This document shows, piece after piece, positions 2,602-15,165 of a stretch of DNA of 55,633 bases. Location: IMG/VR virus record IMGVR_UViG_3300032092_000037, positions 1 through 55,633 of that record; one strand, given 5' to 3'. This DNA comes from a virus (taxonomy: Duplodnaviria > Caudoviricetes). Made by a program: the position numbers and the translations under genes. Under the pieces are notes generated by a model. The model saw only the letters and a list, made by a program, of their open reading frames with translations, ran no database searches and was not told the DNA's origin. Every line of letters starts with the position of its first letter. Position 1 is the stretch's first letter.

Positions 2602-2939
2602 CTACTCGGCCTGATCGTGTTTTTTCTGCTCGGCAAGATAGCGAGCGAATTGCGCCAGCTCAGCGCGGCGCCGGTTATCGAGGCCCGGCATGATGTTGAT
2701 GACTTCAGCCGTCGGCGCATCGAGAACGTGACTTGGATCCCCGCTGCCGTTCAGAAGCCATTCGGCATTCGTCTCAAGCGCGGCTGCCAGCTTGCCCAGG
2801 TTCTCGGCCCGGGGCTGTCGCTCTTTCCTGACAGGATGGCTTGCAGGAAATGCGTATTCAGCCCCGCCTTCAATGAGGCGGCGCGCGGCGACAGGCCGAG
2901 CGCATCAAGACGCTGCTGAACGCGATCCCTTAATTCCAT
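2602..2939 (-). pseudogene. CI-like XRE HTH repressor interrupted by a 1-nt frameshift at about 2808-2814
   Basis: MELRDRVQQRLDALGLSPRAASLKAGLNTHFLQAILSGKSDSP continues in the shifted frame as AENLGKLAAALETNAEWLLNGSG...KKHDQAE*, completing a 112-aa HTH repressor; divergent from cro and flanked by operators. Confidence 0.8.
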
Positions 2940-3018
2940 GGGTGTATTTTCGCACCACAGGGCCACTGTCCCTAGGTTGAAGTTTCCACTTGCCAGTCGT
3001 GGTGCTTTTGTGCACCAT
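2940..3018. promoter_or_regulatory. OR-like operators and rightward promoter PR-A
   Basis: GGGTGT-ATTTTC-GCACCA (2940-2957) and perfect TGGTGC-TTTTGT-GCACCA (3000-3017); TTGCCA(2990)-N17-CACCAT(3013) ends 7 nt before the cro ATG, implying a leaderless mRNA. Confidence 0.75.
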
Positions 3019-4595: not shown

Positions 4596-4774
4596 AGCAG
4601 CCCCGCCCTTTCCAGCATCCGCTTGAACGTCCGATCCTCGCTCAGCGGCCTGCGCTTAACTGCGCATGTCGTCCCGAGCATGTTGATCGGCTGGCGCGGC
4701 TTCAGATGCGCTGAGAGATCGAACGCGGAGACTTCGGCAGAGCGGGCGAGATGGGTTGTGAGATCAAAGCTCAT
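4592..4774 (-). CDS. Small early protein, paralogue of 658..834
   Basis: Shared motifs with 658..834; coupled on both sides. Confidence 0.75.
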   Translation of the reverse strand: MSFDLTTHLARSAEVSAFDLSAHLKPRQPINMLGTTCAVKRRPLSEDRTFKRMLERAGLL

Positions 4775-5139
4775 GCTGCACCCATGAGACGTTCATCGCG
4801 CGCCAGATCCGCGCGGTAGTCGGCTTCGTCGGCCAGCGCTTCAGCCTCGAGGAAGCGGACGTAGGCGTCCCAAGCGTTCGACGCGTTGCGGTTGATGATG
4901 GTCCTTGCGGAGCCGTCGAGATCAACAGCCGGGACAGCCGCAGTTGCCGCCGCAGCCCAGAGCGCGTTCTCGTAATACTCGTCCGGGCGCTCATCGCAGA
5001 TCGCGTCCAGTGCAGCTTCAAACGCACGGAAGCGCTTGGCGCGCGGAATGTCTGCAGCTTCGATTGCTGACCAAAGCGCTTCGCCTGCGCGGTGAGCTTC
5101 GGCGGCGACGTGGTTGGCTTGGGTGGTGGGGGCGGTCAT
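4771..5139 (-). CDS. First gene of leftward early operon B
   Basis: GGGAGA SD before ATG at 5139; Ala/acidic-rich. Confidence 0.7.
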   Translation of the reverse strand: MTAPTTQANHVAAEAHRAGEALWSAIEAADIPRAKRFRAFEAALDAICDERPDEYYENALWAAAATAAVPAVDLDGSARTIINRNASNAWDAYVRFLEAEALADEADYRADLARDERLMGAA

Positions 5140-6767: not shown

Positions 6768-7639
6768 GTGACCTTCCCATCCTCCCGCTATGGGTCACAA
6801 AGTACGAGGGCAAGTGCGCACATCTGACGCTTGAAGAGGACGGCGCCCATACCCGACTTTTGCGTCTTTGCTGGCAGACGCCGGGCTGCACCATCCCGAC
6901 AGACCCGGTCTGGATCGCGCGCCGGATGCGAGTTGACCTGCCCACCTATGAGCGCGTCGTCGGGCCGATTCTGGCCGAGTTTTTCGTGGTCGCAAATGGC
7001 CGCTGGCAAAGCTTGCGTTTGCTAGCCGAGTACGAGCGCGCGACACGCAAAACAGACGCCCGAAAACAGGCCGGAGCGAAGGGCGGAAAAGCTAAAGCCT
7101 TGAAAACAGGCAAATCACAGCCTAGCAATGCTACGGTTTTGCCAGAGCAAACGCTTAGCAAAACCCTGCCATCTACCATATCCATATCCACTGAAGAAAA
7201 AGAAGAAGCTAAAGCTTCTTCCAAAAAAACGGCTCAGAAGACGCGCTTGGCGGACGACTGGGCCTTGCCCAGAGACTGGGTGGCGGACGCTTTTGCTGTC
7301 GCAGCCAAGGCGAAGCAAACCATCACCGAACTGGAGATCGAAAATGAATCCGATGGATTCCGCGACTACAGCCATAGCAAATCGGTCAAGCACGAAAATT
7401 GGCGGGCCGCATGGCGAAACTGGATCAGAAATTACATCAAGTGGCGCAAGCCGGGACATGCACCCGGCCGTGATGGCCCGCGCGCCAACGGTCAACACGG
7501 AGTCAGCTCTATCGCGGATGCAGCAATTCGGCGTCACTTCGCACGTCAAAACGGAAACGGTGTTTCCGATGATCGACGGGGAGATGACCTTTCGCCAGCG
7601 GGCAACGTCATTGACGCTCAATTTAGCCTCCTCAAATGA
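6764..7639 (+). CDS. Replication initiator, YdaU/DUF1376 family, with DnaT-like C-terminal domain
   Basis: LPLWVTKY...HLTLEEDGAHTRLLRLCW...GRWQSLRLLAE N-terminus; RLADDW...FRDY...NWRAAWRNWIRN C-terminus. Confidence 0.85.
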   Translation: MSDLPILPLWVTKYEGKCAHLTLEEDGAHTRLLRLCWQTPGCTIPTDPVWIARRMRVDLPTYERVVGPILAEFFVVANGRWQSLRLLAEYERATRKTDARKQAGAKGGKAKALKTGKSQPSNATVLPEQTLSKTLPSTISISTEEKEEAKASSKKTAQKTRLADDWALPRDWVADAFAVAAKAKQTITELEIENESDGFRDYSHSKSVKHENWRAAWRNWIRNYIKWRKPGHAPGRDGPRANGQHGVSSIADAAIRRHFARQNGNGVSDDRRGDDLSPAGNVIDAQFSLLK

Positions 7640-8259: not shown

Positions 8260-8420
8260 TGTTGACCTCGCCTGTTGCGTGTGACACCGTACACGAAACG
8301 AGGGCGGGCGCAAACACAGGGGGCGCACAGTGCACAGCAAATCCGGGCCAACTTCGTAAACGAAATCGAGAGACTTGAACGTATCAACGCAAACTGACAC
8401 AACTGGGACGGGAGCTGTTT

Positions 8421-9936: not shown

Positions 9937-10232
9937 CCAACCGCAAGGATTTCGGGGACGTGAAAGCCGCCGCTGCACAGGCCGCCCAGCTTGTTGCTCA
10001 TCGCCTCACCTGCGAGGGCTGCTCTGCCCTGCGCGGCGTGCGCCCGATGTGCCAGGCCGAAGCCTCTCCCCATTACCGCCAGCCCCGCCATGCGGGAAAC
10101 GAACGGTGCGGGGTCTATTCGGTGAAGGGCGCGAGCAAGCCCGCAGCGCCGGAGCCTGCGCCCGTTTCGCGCGCGGCCATTGCCGGCGAGGTGGCCAGGC
10201 GCAAGCACAATCGGTGGGAGCGTCGGGCATGA
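9933..10232 (+). CDS. Cys-rich hypothetical protein
   Basis: Coupled; CEGC...C...C. Confidence 0.6.
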   Translation: MTNRKDFGDVKAAAAQAAQLVAHRLTCEGCSALRGVRPMCQAEASPHYRQPRHAGNERCGVYSVKGASKPAAPEPAPVSRAAIAGEVARRKHNRWERRA

Positions 10233-10639
10233 TGTTCTATTGGGGCGAGCCTGAGATTGAACGCCTGCGGGTTCTGTGGGCCAAGGGCGTGTCGTGCGCC
10301 GACATTGGCAGGCAGATGGGAACGACGAAGAACGCCGTTGTCGGCAAAGCGCGGCGTCTCGGCCTGATGCAGCGGCGGCCCAGCCGCGTTGTGAAGGTGT
10401 TCCCGGCGAGGCTGCCAGCGGTGGCCGGCGAGGTCGGTTTTGCCATCACGGAGCTGGTCAACGGCCAGTGTCGGTATCCGGTTGCCGAAACCCGTTCCGG
10501 TCATCGCTTCTGTGGCGCGGGCTGCGAAGATGGCGTTTCGTATTGCCCCGAACACAAGACAATCTGTTTCAGCGGCTTCAAGTTCCAGCGCCAACGCCCG
10601 CCGGCCGAACACAACATTTTGAGACGGGACGCAGCATGA
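10229..10639 (+). CDS. gcrA: GcrA-family cell-cycle regulator homologue
   Basis: W...ERLRVLWAKGVSCADIGRQMGTTKNAVVGKARRLGL and ELVNGQCRYPV...FCG...YCPEH. Confidence 0.85.
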   Translation: MMFYWGEPEIERLRVLWAKGVSCADIGRQMGTTKNAVVGKARRLGLMQRRPSRVVKVFPARLPAVAGEVGFAITELVNGQCRYPVAETRSGHRFCGAGCEDGVSYCPEHKTICFSGFKFQRQRPPAEHNILRRDAA

Positions 10640-13119: not shown

Positions 13120-13272
13120 ATGGCAAATGCAAGACTGACGCCGGAGACGGTGCAGAAAATCCGCGCTGAGGCGAAGCACTGGCCCCAGCGCGTCCTGATG
13201 CGGCGCTACAATCTTGCCCGCCAGACAATTCATGAGATCATCACCCGCCAGACATGGCGGCATGTGGCGTAG
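13120..13272 (+). CDS. Stand-alone small HTH resembling HNH C-terminal DNA-binding domains
   Basis: ARLTPETVQKIR...RRYNLARQTIHEIITRQTWRHV. Confidence 0.6.
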   Translation: MANARLTPETVQKIRAEAKHWPQRVLMRRYNLARQTIHEIITRQTWRHVA

Positions 13273-13282
13273 GCCCGCCCAA

Positions 13283-13298
13283 CGTTTCACGTGAAACA
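13283..13298. promoter_or_regulatory. parS: parS centromere-like site
   Basis: cGTTTCACGTGAAACA: perfect 14-bp palindrome, 15/16 match to TGTTTCACGTGAAACA; intergenic. Confidence 0.8.
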
Positions 13299-13322
13299 CT
13301 GTCCTTAACCAAGGGGGCTGGC

Positions 13323-13961
13323 GTGTCCCGTTTCTTCGACCAGCTCACCGAATTGGCCGGGCTCTACCCGATCAATGACGCGTTCATTGAGGCCTTGCGC
13401 CAGCGGGTGATCCGGGAATGCTCCAAGGTTCCGGTGCAGGTCCACAAGCGGATGAGGGCCGAGCGCAGGCTTGAACTGGCGGCCTGCGAGGCGATTGTCG
13501 CCATGTGGCAGGAGACCTACCTGGACGCCTGGTTCCCGATCACCATGCGCAGGGACTGGCCCCGCGCCATCTGCATCATCAAGGGCAACACGGCGCGGAT
13601 TTCCTTCAGCATCGGCCCCGAGACGGAAGACGGCGGGCAGGAGATCGAGCCTGTCGAGTTCGCGGTGGTCCGCACTCCGCCCAACATCATCAGCAAGGCC
13701 CTGCGGGCTTTCAACAAGCGCGACCCGAAAGCCGAGCGGGAGAGGGAATTCGCCCCGGTTGGCACGCCAGATGGGCGGCCGGAACTGAAGCTGAATCAGC
13801 CTGTCGACCAGAAGCAAGCATTTCGGGCCCAAACAGCCAAAAAGCCTATTGATAGCAAAGCTGTAATGGTGGCGCCCAAAAGCGAAAGATCAACCCCGCC
13901 CCCGCTCACAGAGCGTCCGCCGACCGCCAAGCCGACGCGCAGGGCCAAGCTGGGGCGTTGA
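13323..13961 (+). CDS. Hypothetical protein
   Basis: AAGGGGG SD then GTG; basic Pro-rich tail. Confidence 0.65.
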   Translation: MSRFFDQLTELAGLYPINDAFIEALRQRVIRECSKVPVQVHKRMRAERRLELAACEAIVAMWQETYLDAWFPITMRRDWPRAICIIKGNTARISFSIGPETEDGGQEIEPVEFAVVRTPPNIISKALRAFNKRDPKAEREREFAPVGTPDGRPELKLNQPVDQKQAFRAQTAKKPIDSKAVMVAPKSERSTPPPLTERPPTAKPTRRAKLGR

Positions 13962-13990
13962 GAACCAGCGCGGGATGGGGTAGATTTTAA

Positions 13991-14120
13991 GTGTCGCGGC
14001 GGCGTGGATAGACACGCCCATTGCCTAGCCGAATGGTTGCTAGGGTTGGAACTCCGTCTCTCGGAATCCGAGGGAGACTTGCAAGCACGGAGAGCCGGTA
14101 ACCAACCCGGCCCGCGACAC
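13991..14120 (+). ncRNA. Expanded tRNA-like cloverleaf RNA
   Basis: 9-bp closing stem GTGTCGCGG/CCGCGACAC, D-like arm GCGTG-GATAGA-CACGC, T-like arm GCCGG-TAACCAAC-CCGGC abutting the 3' strand, two enlarged central arms. Confidence 0.6.
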
Positions 14121-14151
14121 GAAATCAGCCTCGGATGAGGCAGAACGAGAC

Positions 14152-14236
14152 GGGGGAGTTGCGGGTTCGAATCCCGCCAGCCGATGATCGGGTTTCTAGG
14201 CCCCGTAGGCTGTAGCTCAATTGGCAGAGCGCCCCC
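14152..14236 (+). tRNA. Circularly permuted tRNA-like gene (3' half precedes 5' half; anticodon undefined)
   Basis: GGGGG-AGTT-GCGGG TTCGAAT CCCGC-CAGCCGA (14152-14184), about 20-nt linker, then TAGGCTG-TA-GCTC AATTGGCA GAGC-G-CCCCC (14206-14236); acceptor (6/7) and anticodon (5/5) stems pair across the halves. Confidence 0.75.
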
Positions 14237-14251
14237 ACCCCGCCCAAACGC

Positions 14252-14279
14252 AAAAGCCCCGCCGTGTGAGGGCGGGGCT
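14252..14279 (-). terminator. Intrinsic terminator for the minus-strand gene 14302..15165
   Basis: AGCCCCGCC/GGCGGGGCT stem followed by TTTT on the minus strand. Confidence 0.7.
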
Positions 14280-14301
14280 CAGGCCATCGGGATCGACCGG
14301 C

Positions 14302-15165
14302 TCAGGTATCGTTCGCCGCGACAAGGAAGGGTTTGAACCCCTGCGGCGGTTTGGCTTTGGCGGCTTCCTTTGCCGCTTTGGCCCTGGCCTTTTCGCGGGC
14401 AGCGCGCTGTTGGGCGCGAAGTTCGCGGGCCTTTTCCTGGCGGCGCTCTTCGCGCTTTGCCTCGGCTTTCGCCTCAGCGGCCAGTTTCGCCTCATGATCC
14501 TTGCGGATCCTGCGGGCGGTGGCTTCAAGGGACCAGATCGCGAGGGCAATCGAGAGGTCCAGAAGCCCGCCGACCAGCCAAACGGCCCAATCGGGGGCCA
14601 GCGGGCGGTAGGTGGCCTCGGCAGCGCTCAGGGCCTTGAGGGCGGCTGAGCGGTCAGCCTTGGCGGTTTCGACTGCAAGCGCCAGCGGCGCACGTTGGGC
14701 TTCCCACGATGCGGTTTTCGCCGCGGTCGTCTTGGGGCAGAGGCAGTCGGGAAGGGCGAGGGCCGGGAAGGCGTCGAGAGCGGCCTGCGCCTTCTCGAGC
14801 CGATCCGTGGTCCTGCCAACCTCGAGCTTTAGCGGCTCGAGACCGGCTTCGAAGGCGGCCTTGTGGGGCGCTTCGATGACGACGCCGTAGAAATTGTGGA
14901 AGCTCACGGCCTGCATGGCCATCGCAACCATCAGAACCGGGATCACGCCGGCCGACGCCCAAGAGCGTCCGAGGGCAATCACGGTGAAGGGAATGACCAG
15001 GGCCGTAGCGCCAGCGCCAAAGGCGAGGGCGAAGCGGGTGATCTGGTCCATGTCGCTCTGAAGCCAGCCATAGAGCCCGAGGGCGCCCATGGCGAAGGAA
15101 AACAGCGCGAGGAAGACAAGGCCGGGCTTGAACCCGGCGGGTTTGGTCTTGATAACAGTGGTCAT
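14302..15165 (-). CDS. Moron membrane protein (about 3 TM, coiled coil, TM, basic tail)
   Basis: Hydrophobic segments, Ala/Glu/Lys coiled coil with CLC at its turn; own promoter and terminator, opposite to flanking genes. Confidence 0.75.
   Translation of the reverse strand: MTTVIKTKPAGFKPGLVFLALFSFAMGALGLYGWLQSDMDQITRFALAFGAGATALVIPFTVIALGRSWASAGVIPVLMVAMAMQAVSFHNFYGVVIEAPHKAAFEAGLEPLKLEVGRTTDRLEKAQAALDAFPALALPDCLCPKTTAAKTASWEAQRAPLALAVETAKADRSAALKALSAAEATYRPLAPDWAVWLVGGLLDLSIALAIWSLEATARRIRKDHEAKLAAEAKAEAKREERRQEKARELRAQQRAAREKARAKAAKEAAKAKPPQGFKPFLVAANDT

Follow-up and report, generated by a model that had tools for sequence, protein, structure and literature searches.

The closest described relatives of the element treated here are the YrlA (Y RNA-like) RNAs, which are described in PMC4201824 and 10.1101/312249 as circularly permuted tRNAs (transfer RNAs) with a loop-closed acceptor stem and near-invariant T and D arms, in which the tertiary contacts of tRNA are kept. 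In the account of Chen et al. 2014 (PMC4201824), a Ro60/TROVE gene lies within ~4 kb of the YrlA on the same strand, and a GNCGAAN0-1G motif near the YrlA 5' end is the presumed Ro60 contact. We examined a 55,633 bp IMG/VR virus record (IMGVR_UViG_3300032092_000037; a tailed phage, 62% G+C, estimated to be 92% complete), the whole of which is referred to below as the window, and found, between a plus-strand gene at 13254-13961 and the convergent gene at 14302-15165 on the minus strand, a permuted tRNA-like module of YrlA type, accompanied by a second structured module (module A) and enclosed together with it by a single predicted helix. The reading that we favour, and to which we give as much credence as doubt, is that a composite structured RNA of ~275 nt is made from positions 13960-14245 and serves as a Y-RNA-like scaffold or decoy acting on host proteins. 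The coordinates of all features are collected in Table 1.

The permuted module has the YrlA-type architecture. When run in E-value mode, the Rfam YrlA model (RF02553) gave a score of 33.8 bits (E 1.2e-5) at 14153-14234 against model positions 23-85, spanning the T arm, the closed acceptor stem-loop and the D arm of the model, and this was the only credible Rfam match in the region. All of the elbow and tertiary nucleotides named for YrlA in the literature are present, namely U14213 (U8), A14219 (A14), the A14220:U14160 Levitt pair (15:48), G14223 and G14224 (G18 and G19) and the T loop UUCGAAU, and the conserved GG stands within the D loop AAUUGGCA, 3' of the T arm. The score falls below the gathering threshold of 69 bits, and no family matched at gathering thresholds in 13850-14350; none of 14 phage loci reached 69 bits either, and L058, a YrlA-like RNA lying ~1.3 kb from a TROVE gene, scored 40.9 bits over the same model range, which indicates that the Rfam cut-off is too strict for phage members. 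Between the window and L058 the T-arm block (25/25 nt) and the D-arm block (22/22 nt) are identical, whereas the acceptor stem differs compensatorily, and L058 was also the sole match in a search with a short-variable-loop pattern.

A pattern running from T arm to D arm, scanned over viral contigs, gave at least 121 matches at at least 120 loci; among the matches listed, both arms belonged to ordinary tRNAs in 86 and neither arm belonged to a tRNA in 20. Seventeen of these 20 modules were folded (three duplicates were dropped) and 15 were aligned to the window (two irregular ones were dropped). In the resulting 16 sequences, 97.6% of the cells of the T, acceptor and D stems are paired, compared with 29.9-49.5% when the partners are slid; 26 cells carry changes on both sides, four of the five acceptor pairs covary and so does the T-arm stem, although the collecting pattern itself forces part of the loop conservation. 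A tmRNA (transfer-messenger RNA) and a functional permuted tRNA were considered for this module and rejected. ARAGORN reported no tRNA and no tmRNA gene in the window, and no tRNA or tmRNA family matched in 13850-14350 either at gathering thresholds or at E<=10; a functional permuted tRNA is contradicted by the same empty ARAGORN result together with the absence of an anticodon loop; and there was no Rfam match to the tRNA mimics skipping-rope, DUF2693-FD and salivarius-1, insofar as these are included in Rfam 15.

The pairing of the ends is what joins this module to the remainder of the gap. The strands GGGAUGGGGU and ACCCCGCCC form nine pairs, including one G-U, and the helix runs straight on from the 5-bp stem GGGGG/CCCCC of the permuted module. 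The unconstrained minimum free energy (MFE) structure of 13965-14250 includes this outer helix at -128.6 kcal/mol (z -3.90), and none of 200 shuffles was as stable. Pair probabilities for the outer helix were 0.63-0.70 when the bare cassette was folded and 0.90-1.00 with a few flanking bases, and the duplex that the 25 nt at the 5' end of 13960-14245 form with the 15 nt at its 3' end (-21.2 kcal/mol) was matched by only 11 of 5000 random 286-nt windows from the same genome. These data show that the fold and the end pairing are above chance. The linker AGAACGAGAC is unpaired in both the MFE and the centroid fold.

In addition, comparison with the related phage L002 shows that the RNA-bearing segment is discrete. 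Window positions 13277-13957 align with L002 3018-3704 at 89.6% identity and 14246-14283 with L002 3707-3744 at 97.4% identity, so that both flanks are present in L002 and the difference is exactly 13960-14245; there the stop codon abuts the terminator hairpin. The first base of this cassette lies 12 nt ahead of the outer helix and its final base is the final base of that helix. Whether it was gained or lost, the RNA moves as one unit. The initial annotation had proposed that 13972-13981 pairs with 14237-14245 as an extension of the anticodon-like stem, that this helix encloses an expanded cloverleaf, the hairpin 14128-14141 and a permuted tRNA-like module, and that the whole forms one multi-domain unit, and on all of these points the single enclosing helix and the coincidence of its last base with the 3' edge of the 286-nt presence/absence difference agree with it.

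Where that annotation does not hold is in the nature of the first domain and in the novelty of the second. It had described two tRNA-like domains of a design that it did not recognize; the second is indeed permuted and tRNA-like, with its anticodon-like stem leading into the outer helix, and its design is that published for YrlA. The first (13983-14126) does not resemble a tRNA: T-loop and D-loop signatures are absent, there was no tRNA call by ARAGORN or by Rfam at E<=10, and it folds as a five-way junction. The overall interpretation is therefore supported in part, for the single unit and the permuted tRNA.

This five-way junction, module A, is a separate small RNA family, homologous and covarying in three phages. 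A covariance model built from the window sequence alone (R1) found a full-length match at L041 5674-5511 (-) with 36.5 bits in 0.9 Mb of phage loci, where the next best score was 15.6 bits; in 0.34 Mb of further loci it matched nothing else at E<=1 except the reverse strand of the window itself (13.7 bits). A model built from two sequences (R2) found a third member at L145 6991-7144 (+) with 39.1 bits, the best background score in about 2 Mb being 15.6 bits. Across the three copies the share of paired cells is 92.7%, compared with 33.7-44.6% for slid partners; 15 of 45 pairs, against 1-3 in the slid controls, show changes on both sides, and most of these pairs lie in P1, P2 and at the base of the long arm. 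The alignments are model-fitted and thus lean towards the model. When the L041 element was folded by itself as an independent check, the closing stem, the first and last hairpins and the branched middle were all recovered (z -6.17); in the window, pair probabilities are 0.78-1.00 for P1, P2 and the first hairpin. The signature of the family comprises a closing stem of P1 and a 9-bp P2, a junction that opens with a 5-6-bp hairpin bearing the 6-nt loop G-W-U-R-G-A and ends with a 5-bp hairpin whose loop begins UA, while the middle arms vary. The conserved unpaired segments are the first-hairpin loops (GAUAGA, GAUGGA and GUUAGA) and the last-hairpin loops (UAACCAAC, UAUCAAGC and UAACGAC).

The two other copies stand in differing surroundings. 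The L041 copy ends 7 nt before a tRNA-Ala that belongs to a tRNA array; the phage is a complete jumbo phage of 243 kb and has no TROVE gene. The L145 copy, in a complete 39-kb related phage, begins one base past a stop codon, and the intergenic gap of 375 nt that holds it is followed by packaging genes. A short hairpin comes directly after this copy, as in the window, and the remainder of that gap folds no better than shuffles (z -0.74). The terminase of this phage is 49% identical with that of the window and is the only neighbouring protein in common, and the phage has neither a YrlA-model match nor a TROVE gene. Neither the loci searched nor five whole phage records nor a last pattern scan yielded further members: the final viral module A pattern gave seven loci, six of them new, of which R2 matched none; 80 terminase-related loci returned only L145; and a model R3 added no member, with L095 (17.8 bits), L191 and L148 not significant. 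As to scope, L233-L238 were searched with R2 only and L111-L130 with R1 and R2, whereas R1 alone was used for L001, L211-L215 and six metagenome loci (L218, L222, L224, L230 and L231 among them), and L232, which holds the known L041 copy, was left out as a search locus. Rfam returned no match for the L041 copy and none at E<=10 for the window copy. In the literature searched we found no description of module A or of a YrlA with a large inserted domain, a search that did not extend to the supplementary tables of Chen et al. 2014, where phage YrlAs, perhaps with insertions, are given. Module A is thus a candidate new phage RNA class, not in Rfam 15.

Several details of module A stand beside this. 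A GUUGG/CCAAC pseudoknot was considered and set aside as unsupported by L041, and the likeness to a double T-loop of T-box Stem I type, in which a pentaloop of AG-bulge type and a G-rich apical-loop motif would both be unpaired, is at motif level only (GAUAGA; GUUGGAA) and unsupported by L041, in whose independent fold the second segment is helical, so that it is not conserved as a loop. The long arm holds (14068-14092) a 12-nt internal loop with the 8-nt palindrome CUUGCAAG, which could allow dimerization and is not conserved in L041 or L145. At L095 4765-4922 (+), in a 380-kb provirus, stems resembling P1 and P2 and a hairpin GGUGUG-GAGAGA-CACAC enclose a tRNA-Met (4804-4879); the model scores there are weak (13.6-17.8 bits, E 0.05-0.7) and this is a lead only. 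Separately, the phage tRNA array at L088 holds a tmRNA (2635-3012 (-), 129.4 bits).

On the favoured reading, a composite scaffold or decoy, the cassette would be transcribed as a 3' extension of the upstream gene's transcript, and the RNA is probably carried in this way: the stop codon lies 10 nt from the outer helix, so there is no room for a promoter of its own and readthrough of the upstream gene is the implied source. Since P1 and P2 covary, transcription must begin 5' of position 13983, either within that gene or ahead of it. It would then be trimmed to the terminal helix, just ahead of the terminator hairpin, and its ends would pair and stack on the 5-bp anticodon-like stem, with the two modules hanging off this stalk. 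The tRNA-like elbow may engage a host protein that recognizes tRNA elbows, and module A, sitting where canonical YrlAs hold their Ro60-binding motif, could offer a second binding or regulatory surface; because the phage encodes no Ro60, any partners would be host proteins. A bolder version, which we regard as rather unlikely, is that this is a Ro60-independent Y-RNA analogue in which the YrlA elbow has been kept and the Ro60 module swapped for a new, mobile five-way-junction family. Module A would then be a new RNA class that works upon, or in concert with, a neighbour shaped like a tRNA, perhaps by chaperoning it in cis, by directing its processing or by recruiting proteins, and through the composite a host factor that binds tRNA would be tethered, in infected cells, to a new partner.

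Several observations weigh against the composite reading. The outer helix and the coupling of the two modules are predicted from one sequence, and because blastn found no full-length homologue in phage and plasmid collections, the outer helix is without covariation support. Module A occurs without the tRNA mimic in both of the other phages that carry it, so the modules may act separately. No RNA run is among the listed public runs that hold the cassette, and the T-run of the terminator is on the minus strand only, making the plus-strand 3' end uncertain. Below the threshold the YrlA model is also unspecific: of 14 control genomes, 9 gave such matches in a first search and 11 in a second, so that the score is no proof by itself and it is the architecture that carries the case. 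Chen et al. 2014 (PMC4201824) ascribe such false positives to tandem tRNAs; the module here, with its loop-closed acceptor stem and no ARAGORN tRNA on either side, is not two tandem tRNAs. Finally, there is no GNCGAAN0-1G in the 5' strand (13972-14000), and the possibly missing 8% of the phage could hold a Ro60 gene.

The separate occurrence of module A speaks for a precursor model, in which the outer helix and P1/P2 are processing stems, as where RNase III cuts around rRNAs (ribosomal RNAs), and module A and the tRNA mimic are freed separately. Module A stands alone in L145 and L041, the L041 copy would be freed by ordinary processing of the adjoining tRNA-Ala and P1/P2 delimit the module cleanly, yet both modules have been gained or lost together, the 3' edge of the cassette is the end of the enclosing helix, and in the canonical YrlAs described in PMC4201824 and 10.1101/312249 the terminal stem is used in the mature RNA. 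On balance we think the precursor model has a fairly small chance of being right.

The relation to Ro60 needs to be weighed with equal care. No TROVE (Ro60) gene was matched in the 55.6-kb, 92%-complete record, and no RtcB gene was found in it either. The sole GNCGAAN0-1G match, at 14028-14035 in a hairpin of module A, is attributable to chance, as 1353 of 5000 random windows contain one. Among the matches listed, however, 9 of the 14 phage records that carry closed-acceptor modules have a TROVE match, as do 7 of the 9 records with a completeness of 88% or more, the exceptions being L020 (complete, 360 kb) and L128 (89% complete), and modules of YrlA type are on these counts tightly tied to Ro60. 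In the TROVE-linked phage YrlAs there is a YUAY segment, a variable (V) arm and, following the D arm, a conserved segment of UAAA(A/C) type. The window lacks all of these; its module has a regular anticodon-like stem of 5 bp and a variable loop of 4 nt, as do the modules of the TROVE-less L020. In that phage, a jumbo phage, at least two closed-acceptor mimics lie in a tRNA array (8270-8400 and 10110-10270 (-)). A conventional Y RNA, whose terminal stem would bind a host Ro60 (Rsr), with module A as a lineage-specific insert and the phage borrowing or titrating the protein, would account for the T and D arms identical to those of the Ro60-linked L058 and for the frequency of TROVE in module-bearing records. 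The phage itself is without TROVE, the 5' strand without the motif and the module without the YUAY, V-arm and UAAA(A/C)-type features, and we consider a host-Ro60 partnership distinctly unlikely.

A third possibility is that the segment is a functionless relic, a captured and decaying piece of a tRNA or Y RNA persisting in neutral DNA between stop codon and terminator. It is a singleton: the RNA was found by blastn and nhmmer in none of 25 flanking-gene loci (nine viral and 16 metagenome, at least three being the same contigs under two names), loop-only and junction patterns gave no matches in viral, metagenome or genome contigs, an exact 25-mer scan of viral contigs returned only an ordinary tRNA (L001), and no relative was found in the phage and plasmid collections. 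The eight public sequencing runs listed with the cassette, all DNA, gave contigs identical to the window with no variants. A second copy of the cassette is absent from this genome, and a miniature inverted-repeat transposable element was rejected on this ground. Against decay, every tRNA-elbow tertiary-contact nucleotide is intact, the helices are unbroken, the fold lies well beyond shuffles and the structure of module A is kept by compensatory changes in three phages; we judge a relic to be very unlikely.

It is similarly conceivable that module A cleaves itself as a ribozyme, of twister-like or some new type, or that it is a cis-acting processing or antitermination element, and that the tRNA mimic is a mere neighbour. 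L145 has a sub-threshold Twister-P5 match at 7083-7128 (+), mostly over the last hairpin and the UAA segment (21.9 bits against a cut-off of 37.6 bits, E 0.023), a true Type-P5 twister is present above threshold in the phage tRNA array at L030 (9961-10028 (+), 54.8 bits), and module A lies shortly ahead of a tRNA in L041 and of a terminator in the window, but neither the window copy nor the L041 copy matched at E<=10 and the internal loops that a twister requires are missing or differ among the three copies, so that this proposal is highly improbable. Least credible of all is an internal promoter at 13958-13986 with the RNA starting near 13993 and the outer helix never forming in RNA, since despite the match at 9 of 12 positions, one of two promoter-like sites in 2.5 kb where 0.3 were expected, such a start would remove P1 and cut P2, both compensatorily conserved in L041 and L145.

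Table 1. Coordinates of the RNA cassette, its structural elements and adjoining features in the window
Feature	Position	Strand	Remarks
Cassette holding the whole RNA	13960..14245	+	286 nt; missing from related phage L002
Outer helix, 5' strand	13972..13981	+	GGGAUGGGGU, A13975 bulged
Outer helix, 3' strand	14237..14245	+	ACCCCGCCC; final base is the cassette's final base
Module A	13983..14126	+	144-nt five-way junction; four arms
Module A P1	13983-88/14121-26	+	6 bp
Module A P2	13991-99/14112-20	+	9 bp
Module A first hairpin	14001-18	+	Loop GAUAGA
Module A second hairpin	14024-44	+	
Module A long arm	14052-92	+	
Module A last hairpin	14094-14111	+	Loop UAACCAAC
Inter-module hairpin	14128..14141	+	GCCUC-GGAU-GAGGC; pair probability 0.99-1.00
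Linker	14142..14151	+	AGAACGAGAC
YrlA-type permuted tRNA mimic	14152..14236	+	Sub-threshold Rfam YrlA match; pair probabilities 0.67-1.00
Anticodon-like stem	14152-56/14232-36	+	5 bp
Variable loop	14157-60	+	4 nt
T arm	14161-14177	+	GCGGG-UUCGAAU-CCCGC; tRNA-type T loop, 5-bp stem; pair probability 0.99-1.00
Loop-closed acceptor arm	14178-14212	+	CAGCC 14178-82 with GGCUG 14208-12, probability 0.97-0.98
D arm	14215-14230	+	GCUC-AAUUGGCA-GAGC; conserved GG loop, 3' of T arm
Sigma-70-like promoter match	13958-13986	+	TTGAGA-17-TAGATT; 9/12 positions; -35 straddles left cassette junction
Hairpin terminator	14254..14280	.	Just 3' of cassette, common to the convergent genes; identical one directly after L002 stop codon
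Upstream gene	13254..13961	+	235 aa; 87% identical protein in L002
Downstream gene, convergent	14302..15165	-	287 aa, probably membrane protein; context only

Elsewhere in the record, a terminase gene lies a few kb downstream of the RNA locus and the portal protein is P22-like (E 2.8e-84), its nearest isolates being below 40% identity. The 235-aa protein encoded upstream of the RNA had no Pfam or PHROG match, and a search of genome contigs for relatives of the downstream gene found none and hence gave no pointer to the host. The early region holds an 87-nt direct repeat of 76% identity (691-777 and 4661-4747).

Among known systems, permutation of this kind is seen in circularly permuted two-piece tmRNA and algal permuted tRNA genes, where the 3' tRNA half stands upstream of the 5' half and an intervening segment lies at the acceptor end. 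The window module differs from these in having no anticodon loop and no CCA end and in having its acceptor arm closed by a loop. For module A, the Twister-P5 family (RF02684) offers a likeness in a helix enclosing a hairpin and then a CCGG-stem hairpin, with an L145 loop that resembles the consensus, whereas the window and L041 copies give no match at E<=10 and the required internal-loop nucleotides are absent. Nearer to the permuted module are the TROVE-less closed-acceptor phage mimics of the L020 type, with the same 5-6-bp anticodon-like stem, 4-nt variable loop and lack of a phage Ro60 gene; these are ~110 nt, lie inside tRNA arrays and have no module A.

The closest likeness remains that to YrlA, which has the same order of stem strand, T arm, loop-closed acceptor arm, D arm and stem strand, near-invariant T- and D-arm sequences, the tertiary-contact nucleotides and a terminal stem made from both ends. 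A short variable loop is also described for Salmonella YrlA (10.1101/312249). The window differs in its ~170-nt insert (module A, hairpin and linker) between the 5' stem strand and the tRNA-like core, in an acceptor arm that is long, interrupted and closed by a 25-nt segment, in its score (33.8 against 69 bits) and in lacking the Ro60/TROVE gene, the GNCGAAN0-1G motif in the 5' strand and the YUAY and V-arm features. Members of the YrlA family are bound by Ro60 and modified by TruB and DusA. An elbow kept without Ro60 gene or motif would separate the two halves of the Y-RNA mechanism, and as the effector that binds the YrlA elbow had still to be identified in the account of 10.1101/312249, the cassette may offer a route to this partner without interference from Ro60. 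Module A is found beside a tRNA, beside a tRNA mimic and ahead of packaging genes, settings which hint that it may take part in the processing or regulation of RNA, and L002 provides a natural deletion with which the cassette can be compared.

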